This document shows positions 1 through 11,443 of a DNA stretch of 11,443 nucleotides, piece after piece. The notes under the pieces were generated by a model that searched no databases, was not told where the DNA came from, and was given only the letters and a program-made list of their open reading frames with translations. Position 1 is the first letter of the stretch, and each line of letters begins with the position of its first letter. Both the position numbers and the translations under genes were made by a program. This DNA is from a virus (taxonomy: Duplodnaviria > Heunggongvirae > Uroviricota > Caudoviricetes): IMG/VR virus record IMGVR_UViG_2551306674_000011; one strand, written 5' to 3'.

Positions 1-1269
1 ATGAAGCTCAACGCCAGACAGGTCGAGACCGCAAAGCCAAAAGACAAAACCTACAAAATGGCCGATGGTGGTGGTTTGTATCTTGAGGTTTCGGCCAAAG
101 GTTCCAAATACTGGCGCATGAAATACAGACGTCCCTCTGACAAAAAAGAGGATCGTCTTGCGTTTGGTGTTTGGCCTACTGTGACGCTTGCTCAGGCAAG
201 AGCAAAACGCGATGAAGCTAAAAAGCTTTTAGTACAGGGCATAGACCCAAAAGTCGTACAAAAAGAAGCTCGGGCCGAGAATTCGGGGGCATATACTTTT
301 GAAGCTATCGCCCGAGAATGGCATGCCAGTAACAAGCGCTGGAGTGAAGACCATCGATCGCGCGTTCTTCGCTATCTTGAGCTTTATATATTCCCTCATA
401 TCGGTTCGTCCGACATTCGGCAGCTTAAAACCAGCCACCTGTTAGCCCCGATTAAAAAAGTTGATGCCAGTGGCAAACACGATGTCGCTCAGCGCCTGCA
501 ACAGCGCGTCACAGCCATTATGCGTTATGCCGTACAGAACGATTACATCGACTCAAATCCAGCCAGCGATATGGCTGGTGCGCTATCGACAACCAAAGCG
601 CGACATTACCCTGCTTTACCTTCTAGCCGATTCCCTGAGTTTCTTGCACGTCTTGCTGCATATCGTGGCCGTGTAATGACACGGATTGCGGTCGAGCTTT
701 CCTTGCTAACTTTTGTGCGTTCCAGTGAATTACGTTTCGCACGTTGGGATGAATTCGACTTCGATAAATCTCTTTGGCGTATACCTGCAAAGCGAGAAGA
801 AATTAAAGGTGTGCGTTATTCGTACCGAGGCATGAAGATGAAAGAGGAACATATCGTTCCGCTTAGTCGACAGGCGATGATTTTATTAAACCAGTTAAAG
901 CAGATTAGTGGTGATAAAGAGCTGCTTTTTCCGGGGGATCATGACGCAACTAAGGTTATGAGTGAAAACACGGTAAACAGCGCATTGCGTGCGATGGGCT
1001 ATGATACTAAAACCGAGGTGTGTGGGCATGGGTTTAGGACTATGGCGCGTGGTGCGTTGGGGGAGTCGGGGTTATGGAGTGATGACGCGATAGAGAGGCA
1101 ACTGAGCCACTCAGAGCGTAATAATGTACGTGCGGCATATATCCATACCTCCGAGCATTTGGATGAGCGGCGTTTAATGATGCAGTGGTGGGCTGATTAT
1201 TTGGATATGAACCGTAATAAATATATTACGCCTTATGATTATTCAAAATACAAAGAAATACTTAAATAA
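1..1269 (+). CDS. int: P4-family tyrosine integrase (422 aa)
   Basis: ORF 1..1269. N-terminal arm-binding-like region (AKPKDKTYKMADGGGLYLEV) and C-terminal catalytic segment with HGFRTMARGALGE and RAAYIHT (H-x-x-R and catalytic Tyr) typical of P4-like integrases. The start codon coincides with window position 1, so a longer upstream start cannot be excluded. Confidence 0.9.
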   Translation: MKLNARQVETAKPKDKTYKMADGGGLYLEVSAKGSKYWRMKYRRPSDKKEDRLAFGVWPTVTLAQARAKRDEAKKLLVQGIDPKVVQKEARAENSGAYTFEAIAREWHASNKRWSEDHRSRVLRYLELYIFPHIGSSDIRQLKTSHLLAPIKKVDASGKHDVAQRLQQRVTAIMRYAVQNDYIDSNPASDMAGALSTTKARHYPALPSSRFPEFLARLAAYRGRVMTRIAVELSLLTFVRSSELRFARWDEFDFDKSLWRIPAKREEIKGVRYSYRGMKMKEEHIVPLSRQAMILLNQLKQISGDKELLFPGDHDATKVMSENTVNSALRAMGYDTKTEVCGHGFRTMARGALGESGLWSDDAIERQLSHSERNNVRAAYIHTSEHLDERRLMMQWWADYLDMNRNKYITPYDYSKYKEILK

Positions 1270-1336
1270 AAATAGTTATTGGTTGATTTTTAAAATGAGT
1301 GTTAAGTAACATAATCTGGAGTTTTTAATTGTTAGT

Positions 1337-1345
1337 TGCTATAAT
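1337..1345 (+). promoter_or_regulatory. Candidate extended -10 promoter element (TGcTATAAT) for the cII-like gene
   Basis: Sequence tgctataat at 1337-1345 in a very AT-rich spacer, about 15-30 nt upstream of the candidate start codons at 1361 (GTG) and 1376 (ATG). No convincing -35 hexamer. Confidence 0.3.
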
Positions 1346-1360
1346 AAAAATCAACGTGAA

Positions 1361-2170
1361 GTGAGTGTGATTAACATGGCTGAGTTATTGCGAGAGCAGG
1401 AAGTTAAAATAGCCCTAATTGAATGGTTATATAAAAAAGGCATGCTTAGTGATGCAACGATCATTAATGAAATGGTTGTTGCTAACTGGAGCAGAAGAGC
1501 TGATTTGGCTATTGCCAATGGAAGCCTACAAGCTTTTGAAATAAAAAGCGATTTTGACTCTCTTAAGCGCTTGGATGGTCAGTTAAAAATTTTTAAATCT
1601 AGCTTCGAAAAAGTTACAATTGTGTGCGCGCCAAAATTTACCAGTGAAGTATCTAAACGGGTTTCATCAGATGTTGGCGTTGTAGAATTTCAATCTAATA
1701 ATAGTAGCGTACGCTTTAAAATAATTCAAAAAGGAAGGGTTTGCTCTCGCTTAAATAAATTTGTTTATTTGGGTTTTTTGCTTAAGTCTGAGCTTAAAGA
1801 TCTGCTTAATCAGTATGGAATTACATTTTCAAATGAACTACATAGGGATTGTCTTGAGGTTTTGGCATCTAAGTTATCTTTAAACAAGATTAGAGAATTT
1901 GTCATTACATCTATTAAAAATAGGTATCATGCGACATCTAATGATTTTTTATCTAGACTCCATGGTAATCAAGAAATATCTATAAACGATCTTGCCTTAT
2001 TGAGCAAAGCTAAAAGAAGGAATAATTCTTTGGTTAAGTTTGAGTTTAAGGCTTGTTCGGAGAAATCTTTAAATGAATACCATAAGGTTGATGTTGACTC
2101 TATAGTTAGGAAATATGGCGATGATGTTTCCTATATTCCGGAAAAAGTACTTAAAAGGGTTGTGGGCTAG
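1361..2170 (+). CDS. cII: cII-like accessory protein (269 aa) with PD-(D/E)xK-like nuclease motif; resembles sce7726-family partners of Beta_protein genes
   Basis: ORF 1361..2170 (GTG start in the track; alternative ATG at 1376). Motif RADLAIANGSLQAFEIKSD gives an acidic residue on a hydrophobic strand followed about 12 residues later by E-x-K, the restriction-endonuclease-fold signature. AT-rich codon usage unlike the backbone. Convergent with beta and ends at a perfect hairpin terminator. The symbol is assigned by position in the P4 nonessential region, not by recognised sequence identity. Confidence 0.6.
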   Translation: MSVINMAELLREQEVKIALIEWLYKKGMLSDATIINEMVVANWSRRADLAIANGSLQAFEIKSDFDSLKRLDGQLKIFKSSFEKVTIVCAPKFTSEVSKRVSSDVGVVEFQSNNSSVRFKIIQKGRVCSRLNKFVYLGFLLKSELKDLLNQYGITFSNELHRDCLEVLASKLSLNKIREFVITSIKNRYHATSNDFLSRLHGNQEISINDLALLSKAKRRNNSLVKFEFKACSEKSLNEYHKVDVDSIVRKYGDDVSYIPEKVLKRVVG

Positions 2171-2196
2171 GGAAGGCTAACCTTCCCTAGTTTTTT
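2167..2196. terminator. Intrinsic terminator between the convergent cII-like and beta genes
   Basis: Perfect 10-bp inverted repeat ctagggaagg / ccttccctag (2167-2176 and 2181-2190) with 4-nt loop ctaa, followed by a run of six T (2191-2196) on the + strand. Stem overlaps the cII-like stop codon; the beta stop lies 2 nt beyond the T-run. Confidence 0.65.
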
Positions 2197-2197
2197 A

Positions 2198-3265
2198 TTA
2201 GATAAGATCTTCCTCATCATGATCAAAGCCATACTGTAGAGCTTCAGATAGCTCAATTTGCTTATTTAAGTGTAGATTCACTCGAACAGCAATCCATTTA
2301 GCTGGACTTCCCATACCTGCTATATCCCCTATAGCAGCATTTCTTATCATTGCAGCTCCCCAAGAGTCCTCCCTTTGATAATGTGGATACTCTGCCAAAA
2401 TTGATTTCGCAGCTTCAATGAACCCTTCTTTATTCATCCCAGGGCGGCGCTCGAAATACCATGAATCATTTAACGCTATATCAATTCTAGGAACATATCG
2501 CCCAATTATGTTGTCATACACTACTGAATGAATTGAACCATGATCGCCATAAATAGCGACATCACTTCCACCAATATTTTGATGCAATTCTCTCTCAATA
2601 ACATCAATATATCCGGACTGTCCATTTTCACGGCAAAAATTTGTAACTGAACTAGGGAAGCTTGTTGCTAGCACACTAATTATGGCTTCAGGAATCTCAG
2701 TTCTAATCTGATTAATCGAATTTATTGCTGCAGCTGTTATAGCAGATACATTCCCTCTAATGTAGCCCAAATCTATGAAAACTATGGCATTTTCTGGAGA
2801 GTTCATCGATACTAGTGACGTCAGGGTTTTATTAATGTCTGTATTTAGATTTCTAATTCTAAATGCAATTGAACCTTTAAGTTCCTCTAAAACCCTGGCT
2901 TGGATAGATATATCTCTAAGTTTTGCTGAATCCGGCATCTGGACTACTGGAATAATATTATCATTTCTGGAACAAAACTCTATCCAGTTTTTAAAACCAT
3001 TCTCAGGAGAGAGTAGTTCGAAGCTTGACGCGCAATGATGAGAATTATCCTTTGTGACATCCAAAATAAATGGGAGATTACTCATCACTTCTAAACTTTT
3101 ATCTAACGATACCTGTATTTCTTCCGAGCGAGGCCATTTCCCCAAAGAAATTAAAGGTAATATTTTTTTCTTATTCTCATATGATAAATTATTCAGTCCG
3201 GTCATTTCTGCTGATCGTGTTCTTAGGGCTGGATAGTATGAGTAATTTTCAAAATATACTTTCAT
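2198..3265 (-). CDS. beta: Beta_protein family (sce7725-like) protein, 355 aa; P4 beta-type
   Basis: ORF 2198..3265 (-). N-terminus YYPALRTRSAEMTGL...ILPLISLGKW resembles the Beta_protein family N-terminal pattern as I recall it. Strong RBS GGAGG (complement of 3276-3280) 10 nt before the ATG, which starts 2 nt after the gop stop, so the two are translationally coupled. Confidence 0.75.
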   Translation of the reverse strand: MKVYFENYSYYPALRTRSAEMTGLNNLSYENKKKILPLISLGKWPRSEEIQVSLDKSLEVMSNLPFILDVTKDNSHHCASSFELLSPENGFKNWIEFCSRNDNIIPVVQMPDSAKLRDISIQARVLEELKGSIAFRIRNLNTDINKTLTSLVSMNSPENAIVFIDLGYIRGNVSAITAAAINSINQIRTEIPEAIISVLATSFPSSVTNFCRENGQSGYIDVIERELHQNIGGSDVAIYGDHGSIHSVVYDNIIGRYVPRIDIALNDSWYFERRPGMNKEGFIEAAKSILAEYPHYQREDSWGAAMIRNAAIGDIAGMGSPAKWIAVRVNLHLNKQIELSEALQYGFDHDEEDLI

Positions 3266-3267
3266 AT

Positions 3268-3669
3268 TTAATTAGCCTCCGAATCGATATTTTCTGGTCG
3301 GCTTGCTGTTCTTGGCATAGCGTTAATTTGGGGGTTCTGAGTAGCAAGATAAGCAGCTATACTTTCCATCTTCTCTTTCTGTTCTGAAGTTCTTGCAAGT
3401 TCTTTAATCAATTCTTTGTTTTCAGCCATCAAGTTTTGATTGGATTCATTATGACTCTTGATTACCTCCATATTACTTTTTATAACATTCGTGTGGTTGT
3501 TGCTAATTGCTTTAATCGTTCTGTGTGTAAACCATCCAATAAGTAAAGCAGCTAACCATCCAGAACAAACGAGCAACCATTGTGAAATATCTTGGTTGCG
3601 GATGAAGCTAGTAGCAATAGTGATTATGGTCCCAACAACGCCAATTAATCCATATACATGATTCAGCAT
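3268..3669 (-). CDS. gop: Small membrane protein (133 aa), two N-terminal TM helices plus charged C-terminal helical domain; P4 gop-type
   Basis: ORF 3268..3669 (-). Hydrophobic segments VYGLIGVVGTIITIATSFI and WLLVCSGWLAALLIGWF, then a K/E-rich tail (NKELIKELARTSEQKEKMESIAAYL). First gene read inward from the cos side and coupled to beta. Symbol assigned by position and arrangement. Confidence 0.65.
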   Translation of the reverse strand: MLNHVYGLIGVVGTIITIATSFIRNQDISQWLLVCSGWLAALLIGWFTHRTIKAISNNHTNVIKSNMEVIKSHNESNQNLMAENKELIKELARTSEQKEKMESIAAYLATQNPQINAMPRTASRPENIDSEAN

Positions 3670-3896
3670 CCTTTAACTCTCTCATGCCACGAATTCTTAA
3701 GGATCTTGCGACACTGACAAGAACCACCTTACATCAATCTATTTTTTGCATATTTTTCAGGATAGTGCCATCAAAAAAGACAGTTTTGGACCATAGGCCA
3801 TAGATTTTCTTCATTATGCTCCAATGTATTAACGAGGTATGTACTGAAGGCACTTTGACTACACAAATAATTAACTAACTTGTCGGTTTGCGCGCG

Positions 3897-3915
3897 GTGC
3901 TTTCCCCGCCTCGCC
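3897..3915. other. cos site (P2/P4 19-nt cohesive-end sequence)
   Basis: gtgctttccccgcctcgcc at 3897-3915 is the reverse complement of GGCGAGGCGGGGAAAGCAC, the P2/P4 cohesive end as I recall it. It lies between the accessory cassette and psu, as expected for an integrated (circularly permuted) P4. Confidence 0.7.
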
Positions 3916-4017
3916 CGCCCGCTTTGCGGGGCGGTTTTAATGCAGTTGCACTGACACGCTCAGACCGCGCCGGGAATGGCGCGGTTTGCAGAAAATGAGG
4001 CAGGAAAACGCATGCAA

Positions 4018-4049
4018 AGCCATGCACCTTATCGATGCATGGCTTTTTT
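4018..4049. terminator. Hairpin with T-run between cos and the psu 3' end (candidate terminator or packaging-region structure)
   Basis: 9-bp perfect stem agccatgca / tgcatggct (4018-4026 and 4036-4044), 9-nt loop, then five T on the + strand. On the - strand (psu transcript) the downstream sequence is only moderately T-rich, so its role as the late-operon terminator is uncertain. Confidence 0.3.
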
Positions 4050-4079
4050 CAGTAAAAACGGGCGGATTTTCGGGGAATT

Positions 4080-4652
4080 TTACACTGACTGACGTGATGC
4101 CAGTTGCGCACTTTTACGCGAAAAAATCATGTTCTGCGCAGGGGTGAATTTTTCACGGCTGTCATCCACCGAAGCCACGTCAGGCCTGAATCCGATGGTC
4201 GTTAAAATGTCGCTATCCTGTGCGGAATAATTAATTTTTTCACCCTTCGCAAGCCAGGACAGAAGGGCTTCACGCAGGGCATCTGTGGCACGCTGTATGG
4301 CACAGTTTCGGGCAATGGCCGTCAGCTCACTGTAGCCCATCAGCTCCGGTGCCAGTGCGGCCGCCAGTGCTGTGCCGTGCTGCTGCATAAAATCATTCAG
4401 CCGGTCGCGGATGCTGATGTGCTGAACGGCTTCATGCGAACGAATATAACGACCGGCGGCCTGATTCACCTGCCATTTTCTGACTTCGATAATATTGCGT
4501 AATTCGTCCAGGCGGCTGACATTTCTGCCTTCTCCTGACAGAAGCCGCAGATATTCCTGTTCGGCCGCTGCCAGCTCATTTTTGCGTTGCAGCCATGCTG
4601 CTTTGTTATTCTGACAGGTGTCAAAGGCCTGCTGTAAGGCTGTGCTTTCCAT
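4080..4652 (-). CDS. psu: Polarity suppression protein Psu (190 aa)
   Basis: ORF 4080..4652 (-), 190 aa beginning MESTALQQAFDTCQNNKAAW, which I recognise as P4 Psu. Last gene of the sid-delta-psu operon. Confidence 0.9.
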   Translation of the reverse strand: MESTALQQAFDTCQNNKAAWLQRKNELAAAEQEYLRLLSGEGRNVSRLDELRNIIEVRKWQVNQAAGRYIRSHEAVQHISIRDRLNDFMQQHGTALAAALAPELMGYSELTAIARNCAIQRATDALREALLSWLAKGEKINYSAQDSDILTTIGFRPDVASVDDSREKFTPAQNMIFSRKSAQLASRQSV

Positions 4653-4725
4653 CGTTATCTCTTTCTCATCATGCTGAAGAATAAAAATACGGTGTGCGGC
4701 GACGGCCGGGGTTAACCGGCAGCCC

Positions 4726-5226
4726 TCATTCCAGACGCAGCGAATATGATTGTGTTTTTAACCGTACTGGCGGCAGTTCCTGTTTTTCATGCAGGCGTTC
4801 TGCCAGTTCGTCCGGTGTGACCGGGCGGACAATGAAGCGGTTGATGGTCTGAAGCGTTTTAAACACCAGACCACAGCCCGGATCCGTGCACACATAAAAA
4901 CGCTCGGTGACTTCCTGAGACAGACGCCGCGATGTTCTTGACAGTGCAAGGCCTTTACATCTCCGACAACAATATCCGGTAACAAGCATTCTTTTCGGGC
5001 GTTTCATGCTACCGGAGGCTGACGTCAGTGAATCGCGGTATCTCTGTTTGCCTGAAATGTATTCCATTCCTGAATCTTTACAGTCAGAGAAAAAGCTTTC
5101 ACTCGCTTCAAATGTCGCAGAGCAATAAATATTCCGGCACTGTGCAATCATTATCTTGGTGCCATCGTCCATGAAATGTGCGCGACGGGTGTGAGCAACA
5201 TGTCCACACGACGGGCAGTAAATCAT
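4726..5226 (-). CDS. delta: Late transcriptional activator Delta (166 aa), two Ogr-like zinc-finger halves
   Basis: ORF 4726..5226 (-). Two Cys clusters (CPSCGH...C...C near the N-terminus, then CCRRC...CTDPGC) consistent with a tandem Ogr-like duplication. RBS GAGGA; the ATG overlaps the sid stop (ATGA). Confidence 0.9.
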   Translation of the reverse strand: MIYCPSCGHVAHTRRAHFMDDGTKIMIAQCRNIYCSATFEASESFFSDCKDSGMEYISGKQRYRDSLTSASGSMKRPKRMLVTGYCCRRCKGLALSRTSRRLSQEVTERFYVCTDPGCGLVFKTLQTINRFIVRPVTPDELAERLHEKQELPPVRLKTQSYSLRLE

Positions 5227-5957
5227 GACAGCAGTCCTCTGGCCTTAAGCACTGCTCCCTGCTGGTCTATTTTGTCCTGCCACACCTTGCGCTGTGCCGG
5301 TGTGCCTGCCACCTCATAATCCATGTGTGGGAGTGTTGCCGCTGACAGTCCGGTCAGCCGGAGAACCGGCTCGCCGGTGAGGCTGATTTGCATCTGTTTT
5401 ATTTTCTGTTCCAGCGATGATTTCACCTGCTGCATGACAGCTTTATCGGGTGCGACGTAGCCCTGATGCCCGGTGGTGTTGGCGAGCGGATTTTCCTGTA
5501 CCAGAATGCTCAGATGCATTGCCCGGACAAGCGCCTCACAGGTTTCATTCAGGGCGTGTTCCAGCTCATGCTCTGCATACAGACTCAGCAGGTGATGATG
5601 TGCCTTCCGGTAGGCGGTGGCCGTGCTGTCACACGCCCCTTTCAGGCGTTCACGTTCGAAATTCAGCACCACGGCCAGATTGTCATATTCCTGTACCAGC
5701 TCCCGGCGTGCCACGCGCTCAATGTGGCGCTGTTTCAGCTCGTCGCTCAGGACACCACCGGCTGCACGAAAGGCCGTGCGCCAGTCGTCAGCGTCGTTTC
5801 CGTCGGCCTGCGCCAGCGCATTTTTTTCCTGCTCTGCCCGTTCAATGGCCGTGACGGTCTCATCCATCAGGCGGGCGTTCTCAAGGTGGGCGGCTCTGGC
5901 CTTTTCCAGTTGTGCCAGCGCGGGTTGCAGATATTCAGGGATGGTGTTGTCAGACAT
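5223..5957 (-). CDS. sid: Capsid size determination / external scaffold protein Sid (244 aa)
   Basis: Start chosen at the ATG at 5957 (MSDNTIPEYLQPALAQLEKARAAHL) preceded by RBS GAGGAG at about 7 nt, not the track's longer 5223..6023 ORF whose extra 22 residues lack an RBS. 244 aa matches P4 Sid. Confidence 0.85.
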   Translation of the reverse strand: MSDNTIPEYLQPALAQLEKARAAHLENARLMDETVTAIERAEQEKNALAQADGNDADDWRTAFRAAGGVLSDELKQRHIERVARRELVQEYDNLAVVLNFERERLKGACDSTATAYRKAHHHLLSLYAEHELEHALNETCEALVRAMHLSILVQENPLANTTGHQGYVAPDKAVMQQVKSSLEQKIKQMQISLTGEPVLRLTGLSAATLPHMDYEVAGTPAQRKVWQDKIDQQGAVLKARGLLS

Positions 5958-5974
5958 TTTCCGGCTCCTCGTCA

Positions 5975-6047
5975 CTTCAGGTTGAGAAAATTGTGACGTA
6001 CACCGGACAACAACACGACGCATTGCAGATGTGCCAGCCCTGACACA
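5975..6047 (-). promoter_or_regulatory. Psid late promoter region with TGT-N12-ACA activator dyad
   Basis: Dyad TGT gccagccctgac ACA at 6030-6047, centred about 80 bp upstream of the sid ATG, matching the P2/P4 late-promoter activator (Ogr/Delta) half-site spacing. A dyad of this form is expected by chance a few times in 11 kb, so position is the main support. Confidence 0.5.
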
Positions 6048-6126
6048 GGAGACTCATCCTCAGACCGGCAAGCCAGGAAAAGGTCGCAGGAAAAACCGGC
6101 TTACTGTTTGTTTTTTTATATTTTAC

Positions 6127-6230
6127 TGTTCACCTCTGTTCACCATAAGAAAAAAGATAAGTAATACAATAAGTTAAAGGGTGAACAATCGCAGTAATGA
6201 CTGTTCACCGTCTGTTCACCACTGTTCACC
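6127..6230. repeat. Replication origin (ori) iteron cluster: six TGTTCACC octamers
   Basis: TGTTCACC at 6127-6134, 6137-6144, 6202-6209, 6213-6220, 6223-6230 and one inverted copy GGTGAACA at 6180-6187, in an AT-rich intergenic region between the divergent late promoters. The same octamer recurs in crr about 4.8 kb away. Confidence 0.7.
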
Positions 6231-6388
6231 CGTTGATGGGCTTTTTGTGCTGTTTATTACTTTTTATTTTTATTAATTCACTGAAATAAATAAGAAAAAA
6301 CAATTTGTATTTCACTATAATTTTTTCCAGCTCCTTCCAGAGCGTTTTAAAGCTATCTGGCGCTGGTGTACAAAAAATGCACAGCCAT

Positions 6389-6460
6389 TGTAAGGCTGCC
6401 GGAACAAATCCCCCCTGTTGCGTCTGCCAAAAATATTCACAAAATAAAGCGCTACCCGAA
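6389..6460 (+). promoter_or_regulatory. Candidate PLL (late leftward-operon) promoter with TGT-N12-ACA dyad
   Basis: TGT aaggctgccgga ACA at 6389-6406, about 110 bp upstream of the vis ATG. No strong -35/-10 pair, as expected for an activator-dependent promoter. Could be a chance dyad. Confidence 0.35.
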
Positions 6461-6508
6461 GCCGGACGGACTTATCCGGTGCTGTATGGACATTAACGAG
6501 GTAGCCCG

Positions 6509-6775
6509 ATGCAAGCTGTTTTTTCTTCCCCGTCTCCCGCCCCTGTGACGCCACTGATGCCGCTGCCGGACATCACGCAGGAGCGTTTTTTACGTCTGCC
6601 GGAAGTGATGCACCTGTGCGGCCTGTCACGCTCGACCATCTATGAACTCATCCGTAAGGGGGAATTTCCGCCGCAGGTGAGTCTTGGCGGTAAAAATGTG
6701 GCCTGGCTGCACTCTGAAGTCACCGCATGGATGGCCGGACGCATTGCCGGACGCAAACGGGGGTACGACGCATGA
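6509..6775 (+). CDS. vis: Vis, AlpA-like helix-turn-helix regulator/excisionase (88 aa)
   Basis: ORF 6509..6775 with RBS GAGG 7 nt upstream. Core [46 protein letters not shown] is the AlpA/Vis family HTH signature. Confidence 0.75.
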
Positions 6776-7371
6776 TGATGCCCGCTCTGCAAAAAGTCCC
6801 TTTTTCTGGCTTGCCTTTTTCCGGCATTTGCGGATATAGTTTTTCCGCTGTCGCAAAATCGGCAGCCGGGCGTGGAAACCCGAGCAATCTAACGGCGACA
6901 TATGACGCGCCATGCGTCTTTTTTTGTGTCGCAATCAACGCCACAGAGCGCCAGATTATGGTGTGGTGTGTGGTCAGTCGAGCAGATGGCACTCCGTGCA
7001 TCCTGCCCGCGTCCGCTCATTATGCCGCAGAGTCAATGGTAGCTCAGGCGGGGCAGCCTCCGGGCTGGCCGGTATCCGTTAGAGCCGGTATTTCCACCCC
7101 CGTCTGGGCTATCGCCATCGAGCGTGGAAACTCCGGCGATAGCGTAACCTGCTATCTAACGGAGGCTGCCATCATGGCTACAACCCTTACCCCTTCACAC
7201 CCTGAATTTGTCTTTGTGTTTGCGGCTGTCCGTCGCGCAGACCGTCATCCCCGTATCTGCATGCTTCGCACCGTCGCCGGTGATGAACGCAGCGCCTGCC
7301 GTTCCCTTGTCCGTGACTATGTGCTCTCCCTTGCTGCCCGTCTGCCGGTGGTGGAGGTGTCCCGTGCGTAA
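6772..7371 (+). CDS. eta: eta: long reading frame beginning at the vis stop and ending at the kil stop (kil nested in frame)
   Basis: Three consecutive in-frame ATGs at 6772-6780 overlap the vis TGA (ATGA coupling). Same frame and stop (7369-7371) as kil. Spans PLE, seqA, the CI RNA and seqC, matching the described nested eta/kil arrangement as I recall it. The track's 6727 start lies inside vis and is less likely. Confidence 0.45.
6811..6840 (+). promoter_or_regulatory. Candidate PLE constitutive promoter (-35 TTGCCT, 18-nt spacer, -10 TATAGT)
   Basis: TTGCCT at 6811-6816 and TATAGT at 6835-6840, placing the transcription start about 20 nt upstream of seqA. Confidence 0.45.
6868..6894 (+). 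promoter_or_regulatory. seqA-like immunity target site
   Basis: gggcgtggaaacccgagcaatctaacgg. Its ends (GTGGAAA ... CTAACGG) are complementary to the two ends of the seqB-like element at 7076-7098 and are repeated in the seqC-like element. Confidence 0.45.
7040..7110 (+). ncRNA. cI: CI immunity RNA region containing seqB (boundaries approximate)
   Basis: seqB-like segment ccgttagagccggtatttccacc at 7076-7098, whose reverse complement ggtggaaataccggctctaacgg matches the ends of seqA and seqC. Flanked by a GC-rich hairpin (cagcc tccg ggctg, about 7052-7064). Exact 5' and 3' processing sites cannot be set from sequence alone. Confidence 0.4.
7121..7161 (+). promoter_or_regulatory. seqC-like immunity target site overlapping the kil ribosome-binding site
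   Basis: gagcgtggaaactccggcgatagcgtaacctgctatctaacgg. The 3' CTAACGG runs directly into the kil Shine-Dalgarno GGAGG (7161-7165). Confidence 0.4.
7174..7371 (+). CDS. kil: Kil (65 aa), first translated gene downstream of PLE
   Basis: ATG at 7174 with RBS GGAGG and 8-nt spacer; 65 codons to the TAA at 7369-7371, nested in frame within eta. Length matches P4 Kil as I recall it. Confidence 0.6.
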
Positions 7372-7651
7372 TAAAAAAGCCCCTCAGACCGTCTCAGCGC
7401 GTCATGACGCCCGTGAACACCTCAGCATTGAGGCTTACCATAAGCTCAACCGCGCCAGCGCCGTATCCCAGTTTGTTGGGGGTGATTTGATTCACCGTGA
7501 ACTCTCCGGCCTGCATCAGCTCTACATTCCGCATATTTTCAGTTACCTGAATGAAGATATTGATTTTGTGCTGAATGAGCTGAAAGCCAAAGGCCTGTGC
7601 CGCGATTTTCTCGCCCAGCAGAAAGACCGGGGAGACAGGACGCATGTTTGA
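7364..7651 (+). CDS. epsilon: Epsilon (P2 derepression protein), about 95 aa, GTG start
   Basis: Frame open from 7208, but the only RBS-supported start is the GTG at 7364 (GGAGG at 7353-7357, 6-nt spacer), overlapping the kil stop. The 95 residues downstream contain no internal Met, so the start must be non-ATG or far upstream. Stop overlaps the orf151 start (ATGTTTGA). Confidence 0.55.
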
Positions 7652-8099
7652 TTTTCCCCAGCCCGGTGAGATTTACCGTTCTGCCGGTTTTCCCGATGTG
7701 GCCGTGGTCGGCATTCTGGAAGACGGTATTCCGTGGGAAATGCCGTACCGCTGCCCGGACATTGTCTGGAATCCGTACCGCCGTAAATTCAGTATCCTTG
7801 TGCGTATCCTCGCCGACGGGCGCACCACAGACATCCCGCTGGGGCGTTTTCTGCGGGAATTTACCTGTGACCGTCCTGACCTGTTTAAACGCAGCCCCGT
7901 AAACCGGCATGCGGTACTGAAAGAAATGGCCGGAGACCCGGAATTACAGAAATGGCGGGAGAAATATCTGGATATTTACCCGCAGGACCCTGTTCCGGTC
8001 AGCCGGGCGGCACCGGTGGCGCGGGAATGGCGGGAAATTCCCCGCACGGAGCCTGACCCGGAAATCACCCCGGATAACAGTTACCGCAATTATCTGTAA
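7644..8099 (+). CDS. orf151, conserved P4 left-operon protein of unknown function (151 aa)
   Basis: ORF 7644..8099, translationally coupled to epsilon. Length and position match P4 orf151. Confidence 0.8.
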   Translation: MFDFPQPGEIYRSAGFPDVAVVGILEDGIPWEMPYRCPDIVWNPYRRKFSILVRILADGRTTDIPLGRFLREFTCDRPDLFKRSPVNRHAVLKEMAGDPELQKWREKYLDIYPQDPVPVSRAAPVAREWREIPRTEPDPEITPDNSYRNYL

Positions 8100-8234
8100 T
8101 TAAAAAACGACACCCGAAAAATTAAATGTGCGTATTCGCGCAGGGATACGCACGTCTTCAGGAGACGCAGATATGCCTTATCAGTTAATGCAACCGGCAC
8201 GGAATGCAGTCATCTGTCACAGGGAGGAAAGCAA

Positions 8235-8555
8235 ATGAAAACACCCTTACCGCCCGTCTTACGCGCTGCCCTTTACCGTCGCGCTGTCGCCTGTGCCTGG
8301 CTGACCGTGTGCGAACGTCAGCACCGCTACCCGCATCTCACCCTTGAGTCACTGGAGGCGGCCATCGCCGCTGAGCTGGAAGGCTTTTATCTGCGCCAGC
8401 ACGGTGAGGAAAAAGGGCGTCAGATAGCCTGTGCCCTGCTGGAAGATTTAATGGAATCCGGCCCCCTGAAGGCCGCGCCGTCGCTGTCCTTTCTCGGGCT
8501 GGTTGTGATGGATGAACTCTGTGCCCGTCACATAAAAGCGCCGGTACTGCACTGA
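8235..8555 (+). CDS. cnr: Cnr, copy-number regulator (106 aa)
   Basis: ORF 8235..8555, RBS GGAGG 8 nt upstream, immediately before alpha. Length and position match P4 Cnr. Confidence 0.8.
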
Positions 8556-8569
8556 AGGAGAACAACACC

Positions 8570-10903
8570 ATGAAAATGAACGTAACCGCCACCGTCAGCC
8601 ATGCGCTCGGCCACTGGCCGCGTATTCTCCCGGCGCTGGGGATTCAGGTGCTGAAGAACCGTCATCAGCCCTGTCCGGTCTGTGGCGGGAGTGACCGTTT
8701 CCGTTTTGATGACAGGGAGGGGCGCGGCACCTGGTACTGCAATCAGTGTGGTGCCGGTGACGGCCTGAAACTGGTTGAAAAGGTGTTTGGTGTTTCCCCG
8801 TCCGACGCGGCCGCAAAGGTGGCTGCCGTGACCGGCAGCCTGCCCCCGGCTGACCCGGCAGTGACGGCCGCCGCCGGTGCTGAAACAGACGCTGCCCGGA
8901 AGAACGCCGCCGCACTGGCACAAACCCTGATGGCGAAAACCCGTACCGGAACCGGTAACGCCTACCTGACCCGCAAGGGCTTTCCCGGCCGGGAATGCCG
9001 GATACTGACCGGCACACACAGAGCCGGTGGCGTGAGCTGGCGCGCCGGTGACCTTGTGGTGCCACTGTATGACGACAGCGGCGAACTGGTTAACCTTCAG
9101 TTAATCAGTGCTGACGGCCGTAAGCGCACCCTGAAAGGCGGACAGGTCAGGGGCACCTGTCACACCCTTGAAGGACAGAATCAGGCCGGAAAACGTCTGT
9201 GGATAGCGGAGGGATACGCGACCGCACTTACCGTACATCACCTGACCGGTGAAACGGTGATGGTGGCGCTTTCTTCCGTGAACCTCCTTTCTCTGGCCAG
9301 CCTTGCCCGGCAGAAGCATCCGGCCTGTCAGATTGTCCTTGCCGCAGACCGTGACCTCAGCGGTGACGGCCAGAAAAAAGCCGCCGCAGCCGCAGATGCG
9401 TGTGAGGGCGTTGTTGCCCTGCCGCCGGTCTTCGGTGACTGGAATGATGCCTTCACGCAGTACGGCGGGGAGGCCACCCGTAAGGCCATTTACGATGCCA
9501 TCCGGCCACCGGCTGAAAGCCCGTTCGACACCATGAGCGAAGCAGAGTTTTCCGCCATGAGTACCAGCGAAAAGGCCATGCGTATCTATGAGCATTACGG
9601 CGAGGCGCTCGCGGTTGATGCCAACGGCCAGCTTCTGTCCCGTTATGAAAATGGTGTCTGGAAGGTGCTGCCACCACAGGACTTTGCCCGGGATGTGGCC
9701 GGGCTGTTTCAGCGGCTGCGCGCGCCGTTCTCCTCCGGGAAGGTGGCCTCCGTGGTGGACACCCTGAAGCTGATTATTCCGCAGCAGGAAGCCCCCTCCC
9801 GCCGCCTGATTGGCTTTCGTAACGGCGTGCTCGACACGCAGAACGGCACGTTCCACCCGCACAGTCCGTCACACTGGATGCGCACCCTGTGCGATGTGGA
9901 TTTCACCCCACCGGTGGAAGGGGAAACGCTGGAAACCCACGCCCCCGCGTTCTGGCGCTGGCTTGACCGTGCCGCCGGTGGCCGTGCGGAAAAACGCGAC
10001 GTGATTCTGGCCGCACTGTTTATGGTGCTGGCAAACCGCTATGACTGGCAGCTCTTTCTGGAGGTGACCGGTCCCGGCGGCAGCGGCAAAAGTATCATGG
10101 CCGAAATAGCCACCCTGCTGGCCGGGGAGGATAACGCCACGTCGGCCACCATTGAGACGCTGGAATCCCCGCGTGAACGTGCCGCGTTAACTGGCTTCTC
10201 ACTGATACGCCTGCCGGACCAGGAAAAATGGAGCGGCGACGGTGCCGGACTCAAGGCCATCACCGGCGGCGATGCGGTGTCCGTGGACCCGAAATACCGG
10301 GATGCGTACTCCACGCATATCCCGGCGGTGATTCTGGCCGTGAACAATAACCCGATGCGCTTCACCGACCGCAGCGGCGGCGTGTCACGCCGGCGGGTGA
10401 TTATTCACTTCCCGGAACAGATAGCCCCGCAGGAGCGCGACCCGCAACTTAAGGACAAAATCACCCGCGAGCTGGCGGTCATCGTGCGTCACCTGATGCA
10501 GAAGTTCAGCGACCCGATGCTCGCCCGGTCACTGCTTCAGTCCCAGCAGAACTCAGACGAGGCACTGAACATCAAACGGGATGCCGACCCGACGTTTGAT
10601 TTTATCGGCTATCTGGAAACCCTGCCGCAGACCAGCGGCATGTATATGGGGAACGCCAGTATCATCCCGCGTAATTACCGTAAATACCTCTATCACGCCT
10701 ATCTGGCCTACATGGAGGCAAACGGCTACCGGAATGTACTCAGTCTGAAAATGTTCGGGCTGGGGCTGCCGGTGATGCTGAAGGAATACGGGCTGAATTA
10801 CGAGAAGCGCCATACCAAACAGGGGATACAGACCAACCTGACGCTGAAAGAGGAAAGCTACGGCGACTGGCTGCCAAAATGTGACGACCCTACAACAGCC
10901 TGA
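8570..10903 (+). CDS. alpha: Alpha, bifunctional primase-helicase with ori-binding C-terminal domain (777 aa)
   Basis: ORF 8570..10903, RBS AAGGAG. N-terminal zinc-ribbon CPVCGGSDRFRFDD...WYCNQCG, TOPRIM-like EGYATA, Walker A GPGGSGKS (nt about 10070-10093). Confidence 0.95.
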   Translation: MKMNVTATVSHALGHWPRILPALGIQVLKNRHQPCPVCGGSDRFRFDDREGRGTWYCNQCGAGDGLKLVEKVFGVSPSDAAAKVAAVTGSLPPADPAVTAAAGAETDAARKNAAALAQTLMAKTRTGTGNAYLTRKGFPGRECRILTGTHRAGGVSWRAGDLVVPLYDDSGELVNLQLISADGRKRTLKGGQVRGTCHTLEGQNQAGKRLWIAEGYATALTVHHLTGETVMVALSSVNLLSLASLARQKHPACQIVLAADRDLSGDGQKKAAAAADACEGVVALPPVFGDWNDAFTQYGGEATRKAIYDAIRPPAESPFDTMSEAEFSAMSTSEKAMRIYEHYGEALAVDANGQLLSRYENGVWKVLPPQDFARDVAGLFQRLRAPFSSGKVASVVDTLKLIIPQQEAPSRRLIGFRNGVLDTQNGTFHPHSPSHWMRTLCDVDFTPPVEGETLETHAPAFWRWLDRAAGGRAEKRDVILAALFMVLANRYDWQLFLEVTGPGGSGKSIMAEIATLLAGEDNATSATIETLESPRERAALTGFSLIRLPDQEKWSGDGAGLKAITGGDAVSVDPKYRDAYSTHIPAVILAVNNNPMRFTDRSGGVSRRRVIIHFPEQIAPQERDPQLKDKITRELAVIVRHLMQKFSDPMLARSLLQSQQNSDEALNIKRDADPTFDFIGYLETLPQTSGMYMGNASIIPRNYRKYLYHAYLAYMEANGYRNVLSLKMFGLGLPVMLKEYGLNYEKRHTKQGIQTNLTLKEESYGDWLPKCDDPTTA

Positions 10904-10910
10904 CCCACCT

Positions 10911-10936
10911 GACCGGCATCTGCCGGTCTTTTTTTA
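10911..10936 (+). terminator. Rho-independent terminator after alpha
   Basis: Stem accggca / tgccggt (10912-10918 and 10921-10927) with 2-nt loop, followed by a run of seven T, 8 nt after the alpha stop. Confidence 0.6.
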
Positions 10937-10950
10937 TCCCGACATCCCCC

Positions 10951-11250
10951 GAAGGTGAACAATCAACTGTTCACCCTTCACCGTATATTCACCCGTTATC
11001 ACACTGAAATTAAAAGAGAAAAACGAAAGGTGAACAGTGTGAACAATCAAATCAAAAAAAACTTTTTTCTCCCTGCGTGATTTCAGTGCGGAGGATTAAT
11101 CACCGGTATGAGTCACATCGGCAGAATGCCGGAGGTGAAGAATCGAATGTTCACCCTTCACCCATTATTCACCACCTATCACTCTGAAATAAAAGGAGAA
11201 AACAGAAAGGTGAACAGTGTGAACAGTTCTTTCGAAAAAAAATTTTTTAT
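10951..11250. repeat. crr (cis replication region): two direct ~120-bp repeats, each with TGTTCACC/GGTGAACA octamers and an A8/T6 tract
   Basis: Repeat 1 about 10951-11070 and repeat 2 about 11131-11250 (offset about 180 bp) align along their length. Octamers at 10954-10961, 10968-10975, 11029-11036 and counterparts in repeat 2. Each repeat ends with a run of 8 A, then 2-3 nt, then 6 T. Confidence 0.7.
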
Positions 11251-11443
11251 GTGGATAAAAGATGCACTGGTTTGGATCCGAGCTACGGATCCAAACTTAC
11301 TGATTAAAAATGATTTAACTTTCCGATTTATTGATGGGCTGAAAATAGATTGGTCAGAAAAACAGTGGGGGCACAAAAGGGGGCATATTTCATTGTTGTG
11401 TTTTATTATTTGTTTTTTATCATTAACTTATTTTGATGTTTGA

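Follow-up and report, generated by a model that had tools for sequence, protein, structure and literature searches.

The stretch of DNA considered here, hereafter the window, comprises 11,443 nucleotides of a virus record assigned to the Caudoviricetes (IMG/VR record IMGVR_UViG_2551306674_000011), and our subject is the three-gene cassette at positions 1270-3896. Homology of this cassette to the gop-beta-cII region of phage P4 had been proposed from the sequence alone, and alignment fully bears it out: positions 1270-3896 are 100% identical to the P4 records X51522, NC_001609 and M27748, which name the three genes gop, beta and cII and annotate the hairpin between the convergent genes as the cII terminator. 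The region is the P4 gop-beta-cII nonessential region itself, an already known and named defence system, with the same sequence, genes, gene order, terminator and cos-adjacent site as in P4 and no difference within the cassette. The gop, beta and cll profiles of PADLOC match at full length (4.3e-70, 8.2e-188 and 3.5e-113, respectively) and the genes are contiguous, which places the cassette in the gop-beta-cII system of PADLOC and DefenseFinder (Gop_beta_cll; three adjacent genes, three profiles). The original prediction had called this probably a described locus; as a validated defence system with detection models of its own, it is in fact better described than that wording implied.

The layout predicted earlier, a gop-beta operon with a 2-nt gap and a ribosome-binding site, opposed by a convergent cII gene and a hairpin terminator, is present in all its parts. 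The gop gene (3268..3669, minus strand; 133 aa) precedes beta (2198..3265, minus strand; 355 aa); the gop stop codon TAA (3270-3268) is followed by the dinucleotide AT and then by the beta ATG at 3265, while the beta ribosome-binding site, a GGAGG (3276..3280, minus strand), lies within the 3' end of gop, 10 nt 5' of that ATG. The narrow gap and the GGAGG are consistent with co-transcription and coupled translation of gop and beta. Upstream of gop, a promoter-like site (3693..3720, minus strand; TTGTCA, a 16-nt spacer and AAGAAT) matches the consensus and could serve as the promoter of the operon.

As for cII, the open reading frame of 269 aa that had been predicted (1361-2170, plus strand, from a GTG at 1361) does exist, but the P4 annotation takes the ATG at 1376 instead, giving a gene at 1376..2170 and a protein of 264 aa. 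This is the likelier start because a perfect TATAAT hexamer, read from the sequence, lies at 1340..1345 (plus strand). Together with TGGAGT at 1317-1322 (plus strand), a weak candidate -35 element, the hexamer forms a candidate cII promoter, which a consensus promoter scan passed over owing to the poor -35. The intrinsic terminator of cII (2164..2199, plus strand; annotated in NC_001609) consists of a hairpin at 2164-2193, with ten Watson-Crick and three G-T pairs around a CTAA loop, and a T-run, TTTTTTATT, which follows the hairpin on the cII strand only; the cII stop codon falls inside the stem. A mutation in this terminator reportedly gave a temperature-sensitive phenotype that was put down to defective beta expression.

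Taken as a whole, the window represents a P4-like element permuted as in the integrated prophage and is distinct from the reference record: positions 1-3915 align with P4 3914-1 at 99.9% identity and positions 3916-11443 with P4 11624-4096 at 98.0%. The element extends from the start of int, through the closed cos junction (3915/3916), to the attP core beside alpha. The cassette lies between int (1-1269, plus strand; a 422-aa ORF) and cos, with the P4 late and replication genes coming after it, and has a G+C content of 31-40% as against 50-65% elsewhere in the element. A 1-nt indel relative to NC_001609 falls outside 1270-3896, within int or 3897-3915, and may explain why the int ORF has 422 aa rather than the annotated 440 aa. 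Of 5426 complete E. coli genomes, 39 carry the cassette at an identity of at least 99%, each as one chromosomal copy.

A few further features of the window were weighed. A 26-aa ORF with a GGAG site (3734-3814, minus strand), between cos and the promoter-like site of gop, was rejected as a gene, being unconserved in the Serratia and Aeromonas cassettes. An Rfam scan of the window returned no RNA family within the cassette, its only matches being the Hfq-binding RNA isrK (6847-6924, plus strand; 72.5 bits) and the C4 antisense RNA of P4 CI immunity (7032-7119, plus strand; 76.2 bits). Exactly on the cos junction, at 3915-3934, stands a GC-rich hairpin, CCGCCCGC-TTTG-CGGGGCGG, with a short T-run on the plus strand; judging by its form, it could limit transcription coming in from the gop side.

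What is known of the function of the system comes from a handful of studies. The cloned system protects against lambda and P1, and its named carrier is the P4 satellite NC_001609 (Rousset 2022, PMC9122126), with which the cassette studied here shares 100% identity. The same authors describe a cos-adjacent hotspot of P4-like satellites that holds defence systems, gop-beta-cII among them (PMC9122126), which agrees with the anti-phage location that had been suspected, and the Domainator paper names the system among the P4 hotspot cargos. The toxicity of Gop when beta is absent, put forward at the outset together with the cII terminator that is found in the P4 annotation, was reported by Ghisotti 1990 as cited by Rousset (PMC9122126), and the title of that older paper (PMC249035) describes the region as nonessential for P4. 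More recently, a phage accessory gene, orf184, was reported in a preprint to trigger cell death through gop-beta-cII, the cloned system included; orf184 shares its accessory region with ral, a gene for anti-restriction (Silas 2023, bioRxiv 10.1101/2023.04.06.535777). The toxin-antidote relation, the defence phenotype and the orf184 trigger are the reported experimental results, all of them from the literature. A literature search for the mechanism returned the Rousset, Silas and Domainator papers, a study of the related PD-lambda-2 system by Vassallo and census mentions, and no mechanistic study, as had been supposed at the outset; a search on PF14350/Beta_protein gave irrelevant papers only.

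Predicted architecture of cII, beta and Gop

The description of cII as nuclease-like was at first only a guess, and it is now backed by a fold search and a motif analysis. The protein scores 151.3 bits against the NCBIfam model sce7726_fam (NF033832; cutoff 70), and its homologues carry the precomputed Pfam assignment Phage_P4_cII (PF26915). The N-terminal domain is predicted to adopt the restriction-endonuclease-like alpha/beta fold of the PD-(D/E)xK superfamily and is followed by a SAP-like helix-extended-helix DNA-binding motif (residues ~135-165) and a helical C-terminal region. The predicted catalytic motif, D43...E55-x-K57, is at least 98% conserved in 113 sequences, as are E7 and E32, and cII is apparently an active PD-(D/E)xK nuclease. 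It shares only 10-18% sequence identity with SPO1766 (3dnx), NucS, Can2 and type II restriction enzymes, and differs from these PD-(D/E)xK nucleases in the additional SAP-like motif, the helical tail and the linkage to a TIM-barrel partner. The family is large: at 50% identity its representatives number 5503 for E ≤ 1e-3, and 581 once the threshold is tightened to E ≤ 1e-30.

That partner, beta, belongs to the Pfam family Beta_protein (PF14350; 191.3 bits against a cutoff of 27, residues 10-337 on a model of 342 positions). The structure model is a confident TIM barrel, a divergent (beta/alpha)8 barrel with a long C-terminal helix, and sequence and profile searches of all PDB chains with beta, as with cII, gave chance-level matches only (E ≥ 0.02). 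Beta is an orphan TIM barrel without a close solved relative and with an enzyme-like conserved pocket. Some 20 positions of the alignment are near-invariant, and about half of these hold polar or charged residues (about 12 deeply conserved). Read together with the model, the alignment puts Arg, Asp, His and Ser among the conserved residues that lie at strand ends or immediately beyond them; R17, D165, D241, D262 and H332 belong to the pocket, and beta may be catalytic.

Several known families were considered for beta and set aside. As a sce7725-type partner of the sce7726-like cII it was rejected: P4 beta matched no NCBIfam model at E ≤ 1, and of four distant beta proteins three gave no match at that threshold and one a chance match only, so that neither P4 beta nor its four relatives matched sce7725, a model whose presence in the release is unconfirmed. 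With the tRNA- and DNA-guanine transglycosylases (TGT/DpdA), which are TIM-barrel base-exchange enzymes with a Zn-binding subdomain, beta shares generic barrel similarity only; it gives no such match in Pfam, NCBIfam or the sequence and profile searches of the PDB and has no conserved cysteine. The comparison with type II toxin-antitoxin (TA) systems goes somewhat further, in that a protein toxin with a co-transcribed protein antidote is reported for Gop and beta (Ghisotti 1990, as cited in PMC9122126) and the 2-nt gap is consistent with it. The small, labile, DNA-binding and autoregulatory antitoxin of that type is not what the locus encodes, however, beta being a TIM barrel of 355 aa in which Pfam, the structure model and the fold search detected no DNA-binding domain.

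Gop is a protein of quite a different kind. Its hydropathy profile predicts two N-terminal transmembrane (TM) segments, at residues ~5-23 and ~30-48, with an SGW motif, followed by a coiled coil (~60-110; sub-threshold matches to coiled-coil Pfam families) and a short basic tail with a C-terminal P-R motif. Sequence searches with Gop find homologues in Enterobacterales and Aeromonas only, from which it appears that the protein evolves fast; the architecture of two TM helices and a coiled coil is nevertheless kept in the alignment of 28 positional homologues, gop-like ORFs of 120-165 aa with an (S/A)GW motif and a C-terminal P-R-R/K motif, and the gop-like protein of Burkholderia pseudomallei matches the PADLOC gop model at 1e-9. 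The RexAB system of lambda, also carried by a temperate element, offers a likeness: a small membrane killing protein controlled by a cytoplasmic partner that is encoded next to it. The cytoplasmic Rex partner activates its channel and Rex has no nuclease, whereas beta restrains Gop and a cII nuclease is present. RexAB and gop-beta-cII show no significant sequence relation.

Linkage and genomic setting of the beta-cII pair

Homologue searches found cII-like and beta-like proteins encoded on shared contigs in Enterobacterales, Pseudomonas, Burkholderia, Cupriavidus, Pasteurella and metagenomes. A beta-profile scan of one genome per species gave 44 loci (beta identity 27-48%) from Alpha-, Beta- and Gammaproteobacteria and from one metagenome-assembled genome (MAG) of the Thermoguttaceae, a planctomycete; the ORFs of each locus were searched with hidden Markov models, 43 loci being testable for cII and 40 for gop. 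A cII homologue lies downstream of beta and convergent with it, tail to tail, in 42 of the 43, and this predicted linkage strongly supports the earlier suggestion that beta and a sce7726-like gene form a conserved core that occurs well beyond P4. The two genes abut in 39 of these 42 loci, the spacing ranging from -71 to +34 nt and the ORFs frequently overlapping by 4 nt; the remaining testable locus (L054) has host genes in place of a cII within 4 kb of beta, and two loci from Photorhabdus are degenerate. Across 43 loci the pairwise identities of beta and cII are correlated (r = 0.88; none of 2000 Mantel permutations reaches this value); this fits genes that are inherited together, although part of the correlation is owed to shared host phylogeny. 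In one locus (L014, 5190-6068) beta and cII are separated by an inserted DUF4062 gene (Pfam 1.3e-18), which runs in the direction of cII and may encode an additional part of the system in that lineage.

The gene upstream of beta is far less constant. A gop-like ORF lies directly upstream in 28 of the 40 testable loci and is absent from 11, and many beta-cII loci are chromosomal, lodged between housekeeping genes, and have no gop; Paraburkholderia (L025) and Curvibacter (L026) offer examples of such natural two-gene loci. The difference in linkage speaks for a reading that we entertain with less than even confidence, the main rival of the one favoured below, namely that beta and cII are an autonomous immune module in which beta, an enzyme or a sensor of some ligand (a phage product, say, or a nucleotide or nucleic-acid base), would license cII to cut phage or host DNA; Gop would then be a dispensable addition at the membrane, serving as a reserve toxin or an anchor, and its toxicity without beta a side effect of the loss of its partner. 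The conservation of the catalytic motif of cII and of the polar and charged residues of beta, as well as the sheer size of the cII family, point the same way, and so does the slot upstream of beta, which is filled by a gop-like gene, by a TM protein together with a CapP-like M78 peptidase, or by nothing. Yet Gop toxicity and its relief by beta are the only genetic phenotypes reported for P4, and for cII no toxic effect has been reported.

The loci with the peptidase follow the order 2-TM protein, Peptidase_M78 protein, beta and cII, and were found in the Thermoguttaceae MAG (L055, 2697-5687) and in metagenome-derived sequences (L008, 3688-6344; L009; L011, 5001-7638). Their cII proteins are shorter (224-230 aa), and the TM protein of the planctomycete locus has a sub-threshold match to RexB (E 0.005). 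The peptidases match Pfam Peptidase_M78 at 1e-22 to 4e-24, with PADLOC capP as best model (8e-31); they resemble CapH/CapP-type regulation, in which M78 peptidase modules accompany CBASS and other defence operons, although no HTH partner was seen beside them and the P4 cassette, lacking a peptidase, falls outside the likeness. Since the same peptidases also match PD-Lambda-2_B (3e-10), the four-gene variant bridges the P4 system and PD-lambda-2.

PD-lambda-2 is a related system whose third protein is a member of the beta family. It protects against lambda and was described as TA-like and abortive; the toxic component is the peptidase fusion, and the third protein is needed for defence, not for neutralisation of the toxin (Vassallo 2022, PMC9519451), a division of labour that also favours the view of beta and cII as a self-sufficient core. 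PD-lambda-2 differs from the P4 cassette in having a HigB-like protein and an HTH-M78 fusion in place of Gop, and no cII-type nuclease has been described for it. The cassette was accordingly not classed as PD-lambda-2: P4 beta matches the PADLOC PD-Lambda-2_C model weakly (8e-14) and its own 'beta' model far better (8e-188), and no peptidase or HigB-like gene lies in the window.

The tail-to-tail layout itself has suggested a switch at the level of transcription, whereby increased or read-through transcription of cII, antisense to beta and caused perhaps by phage anti-termination or lost termination, would lower beta relative to Gop and unleash the toxin. The layout is kept across phyla, often with the 4-nt overlap, and in P4, Serratia, Aeromonas and Photorhabdus, in which a gap remains between the convergent genes, that gap holds a hairpin whose sequence is unrelated from one to the next. 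The phenotype reported for the terminator mutation, with its defective beta expression, would fit as well. We nonetheless hold such a switch to be improbable, since loci without gop share the arrangement, which can therefore not exist solely for the control of Gop; the reported trigger is one phage protein, expressed by itself, which points to a switch at the protein level; and the preserved gene order may merely reflect inheritance as a unit.

The cassette is not confined to P4-like satellites. In Pasteurella multocida a homologous three-gene system (L005-L007; also in phage Pmp11 OR544128, H20) stands beside a CI-like S24 repressor in a lambdoid-type temperate prophage, so that full phages, too, carry the system. 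In Aeromonas caviae (CP085468; L058, 2537-7524) DDE_3 (IS630-type) transposase genes flank the cassette on both sides, which suggests that it moves there as a composite transposon and not inside a P4-like satellite. In Burkholderia pseudomallei (L002-L004) gop-like, beta and cII genes lie beside a type VI secretion cluster (TssF), and the system must be common in this species, for the cII protein occurs in more than 100 blocks of the collection.

That a toxin and its antidote should ride on satellites, prophages and transposons is also what one would expect if Gop and beta were mainly an addiction module, a TA pair stabilising the P4 prophage or plasmid, with defence incidental and cII an unrelated passenger. 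This we likewise regard as improbable: defence has been measured directly with the cloned system, cII is the most faithful partner of beta and hence no passenger, many chromosomal loci between housekeeping genes lack gop altogether, and the region is nonessential for P4.

Toxin restraint as a proposed mechanism, its difficulties and what would follow

On balance we lean, with some reserve, towards toxin-restraint abortive infection as the mode of action of gop-beta-cII. In this scheme Gop, a small inner-membrane protein with a cytoplasmic coiled coil, would harm the cell if left unrestrained, and beta, whose translation is coupled to that of gop on a shared transcript, would act as the cytoplasmic TIM barrel that keeps Gop inactive and probably also perceives infection. 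The convergently transcribed nuclease cII would be the partner of beta and act on DNA, whether by serving as a second effector or by sensing DNA. During infection by a phage of the lambda or P1 type, a phage product such as that of orf184 would disturb beta or the beta-cII pair, whereupon Gop would be released and the cell would die or stop growing before phage progeny are made. The behaviour of the PD-lambda-2 third protein, required for defence and dispensable as an antidote, would fit such a sensor or adaptor role for beta. The identity of the phage sensor, the effect of Gop on the membrane, the cleavage target of cII and catalysis by beta are elements of this scheme that we infer.

Several observations weigh against toxin restraint. 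The 11 loci that lack a gop-like gene amount to about a quarter of the 40 testable beta-cII loci, and because of them Gop is not a universal effector and the core may act through its nuclease. According to the structure model, moreover, beta, with its 355 aa and its enzyme-like conserved pocket, looks unlike a simple antitoxin. The abortive phenotype of the P4 system derives from one preprint and from what the toxicity of Gop implies, and depolarisation by Gop, nuclease activity of cII and binding of beta to Gop or cII are all predicted roles.

It is conceivable, and we put it forward tentatively, that the view of a TA pair plus bystander has matters backwards. The ancestral and widespread unit may be a beta-cII immune core fitted with interchangeable front-end modules, in which beta would act catalytically on some ligand, a nucleotide or a derivative of nucleic acid, and would control the nuclease. 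While the locus itself was known, the domain assignments and linkage statistics added here turn the question of its mechanism into one of specific experiments. If beta and cII are indeed an autonomous immune core, several thousand bacterial genes annotated as 'sce7726 family' and 'beta family', so far uncharacterised, would gain a function, and a nuclease core controlled by beta would represent a defence logic not yet described.

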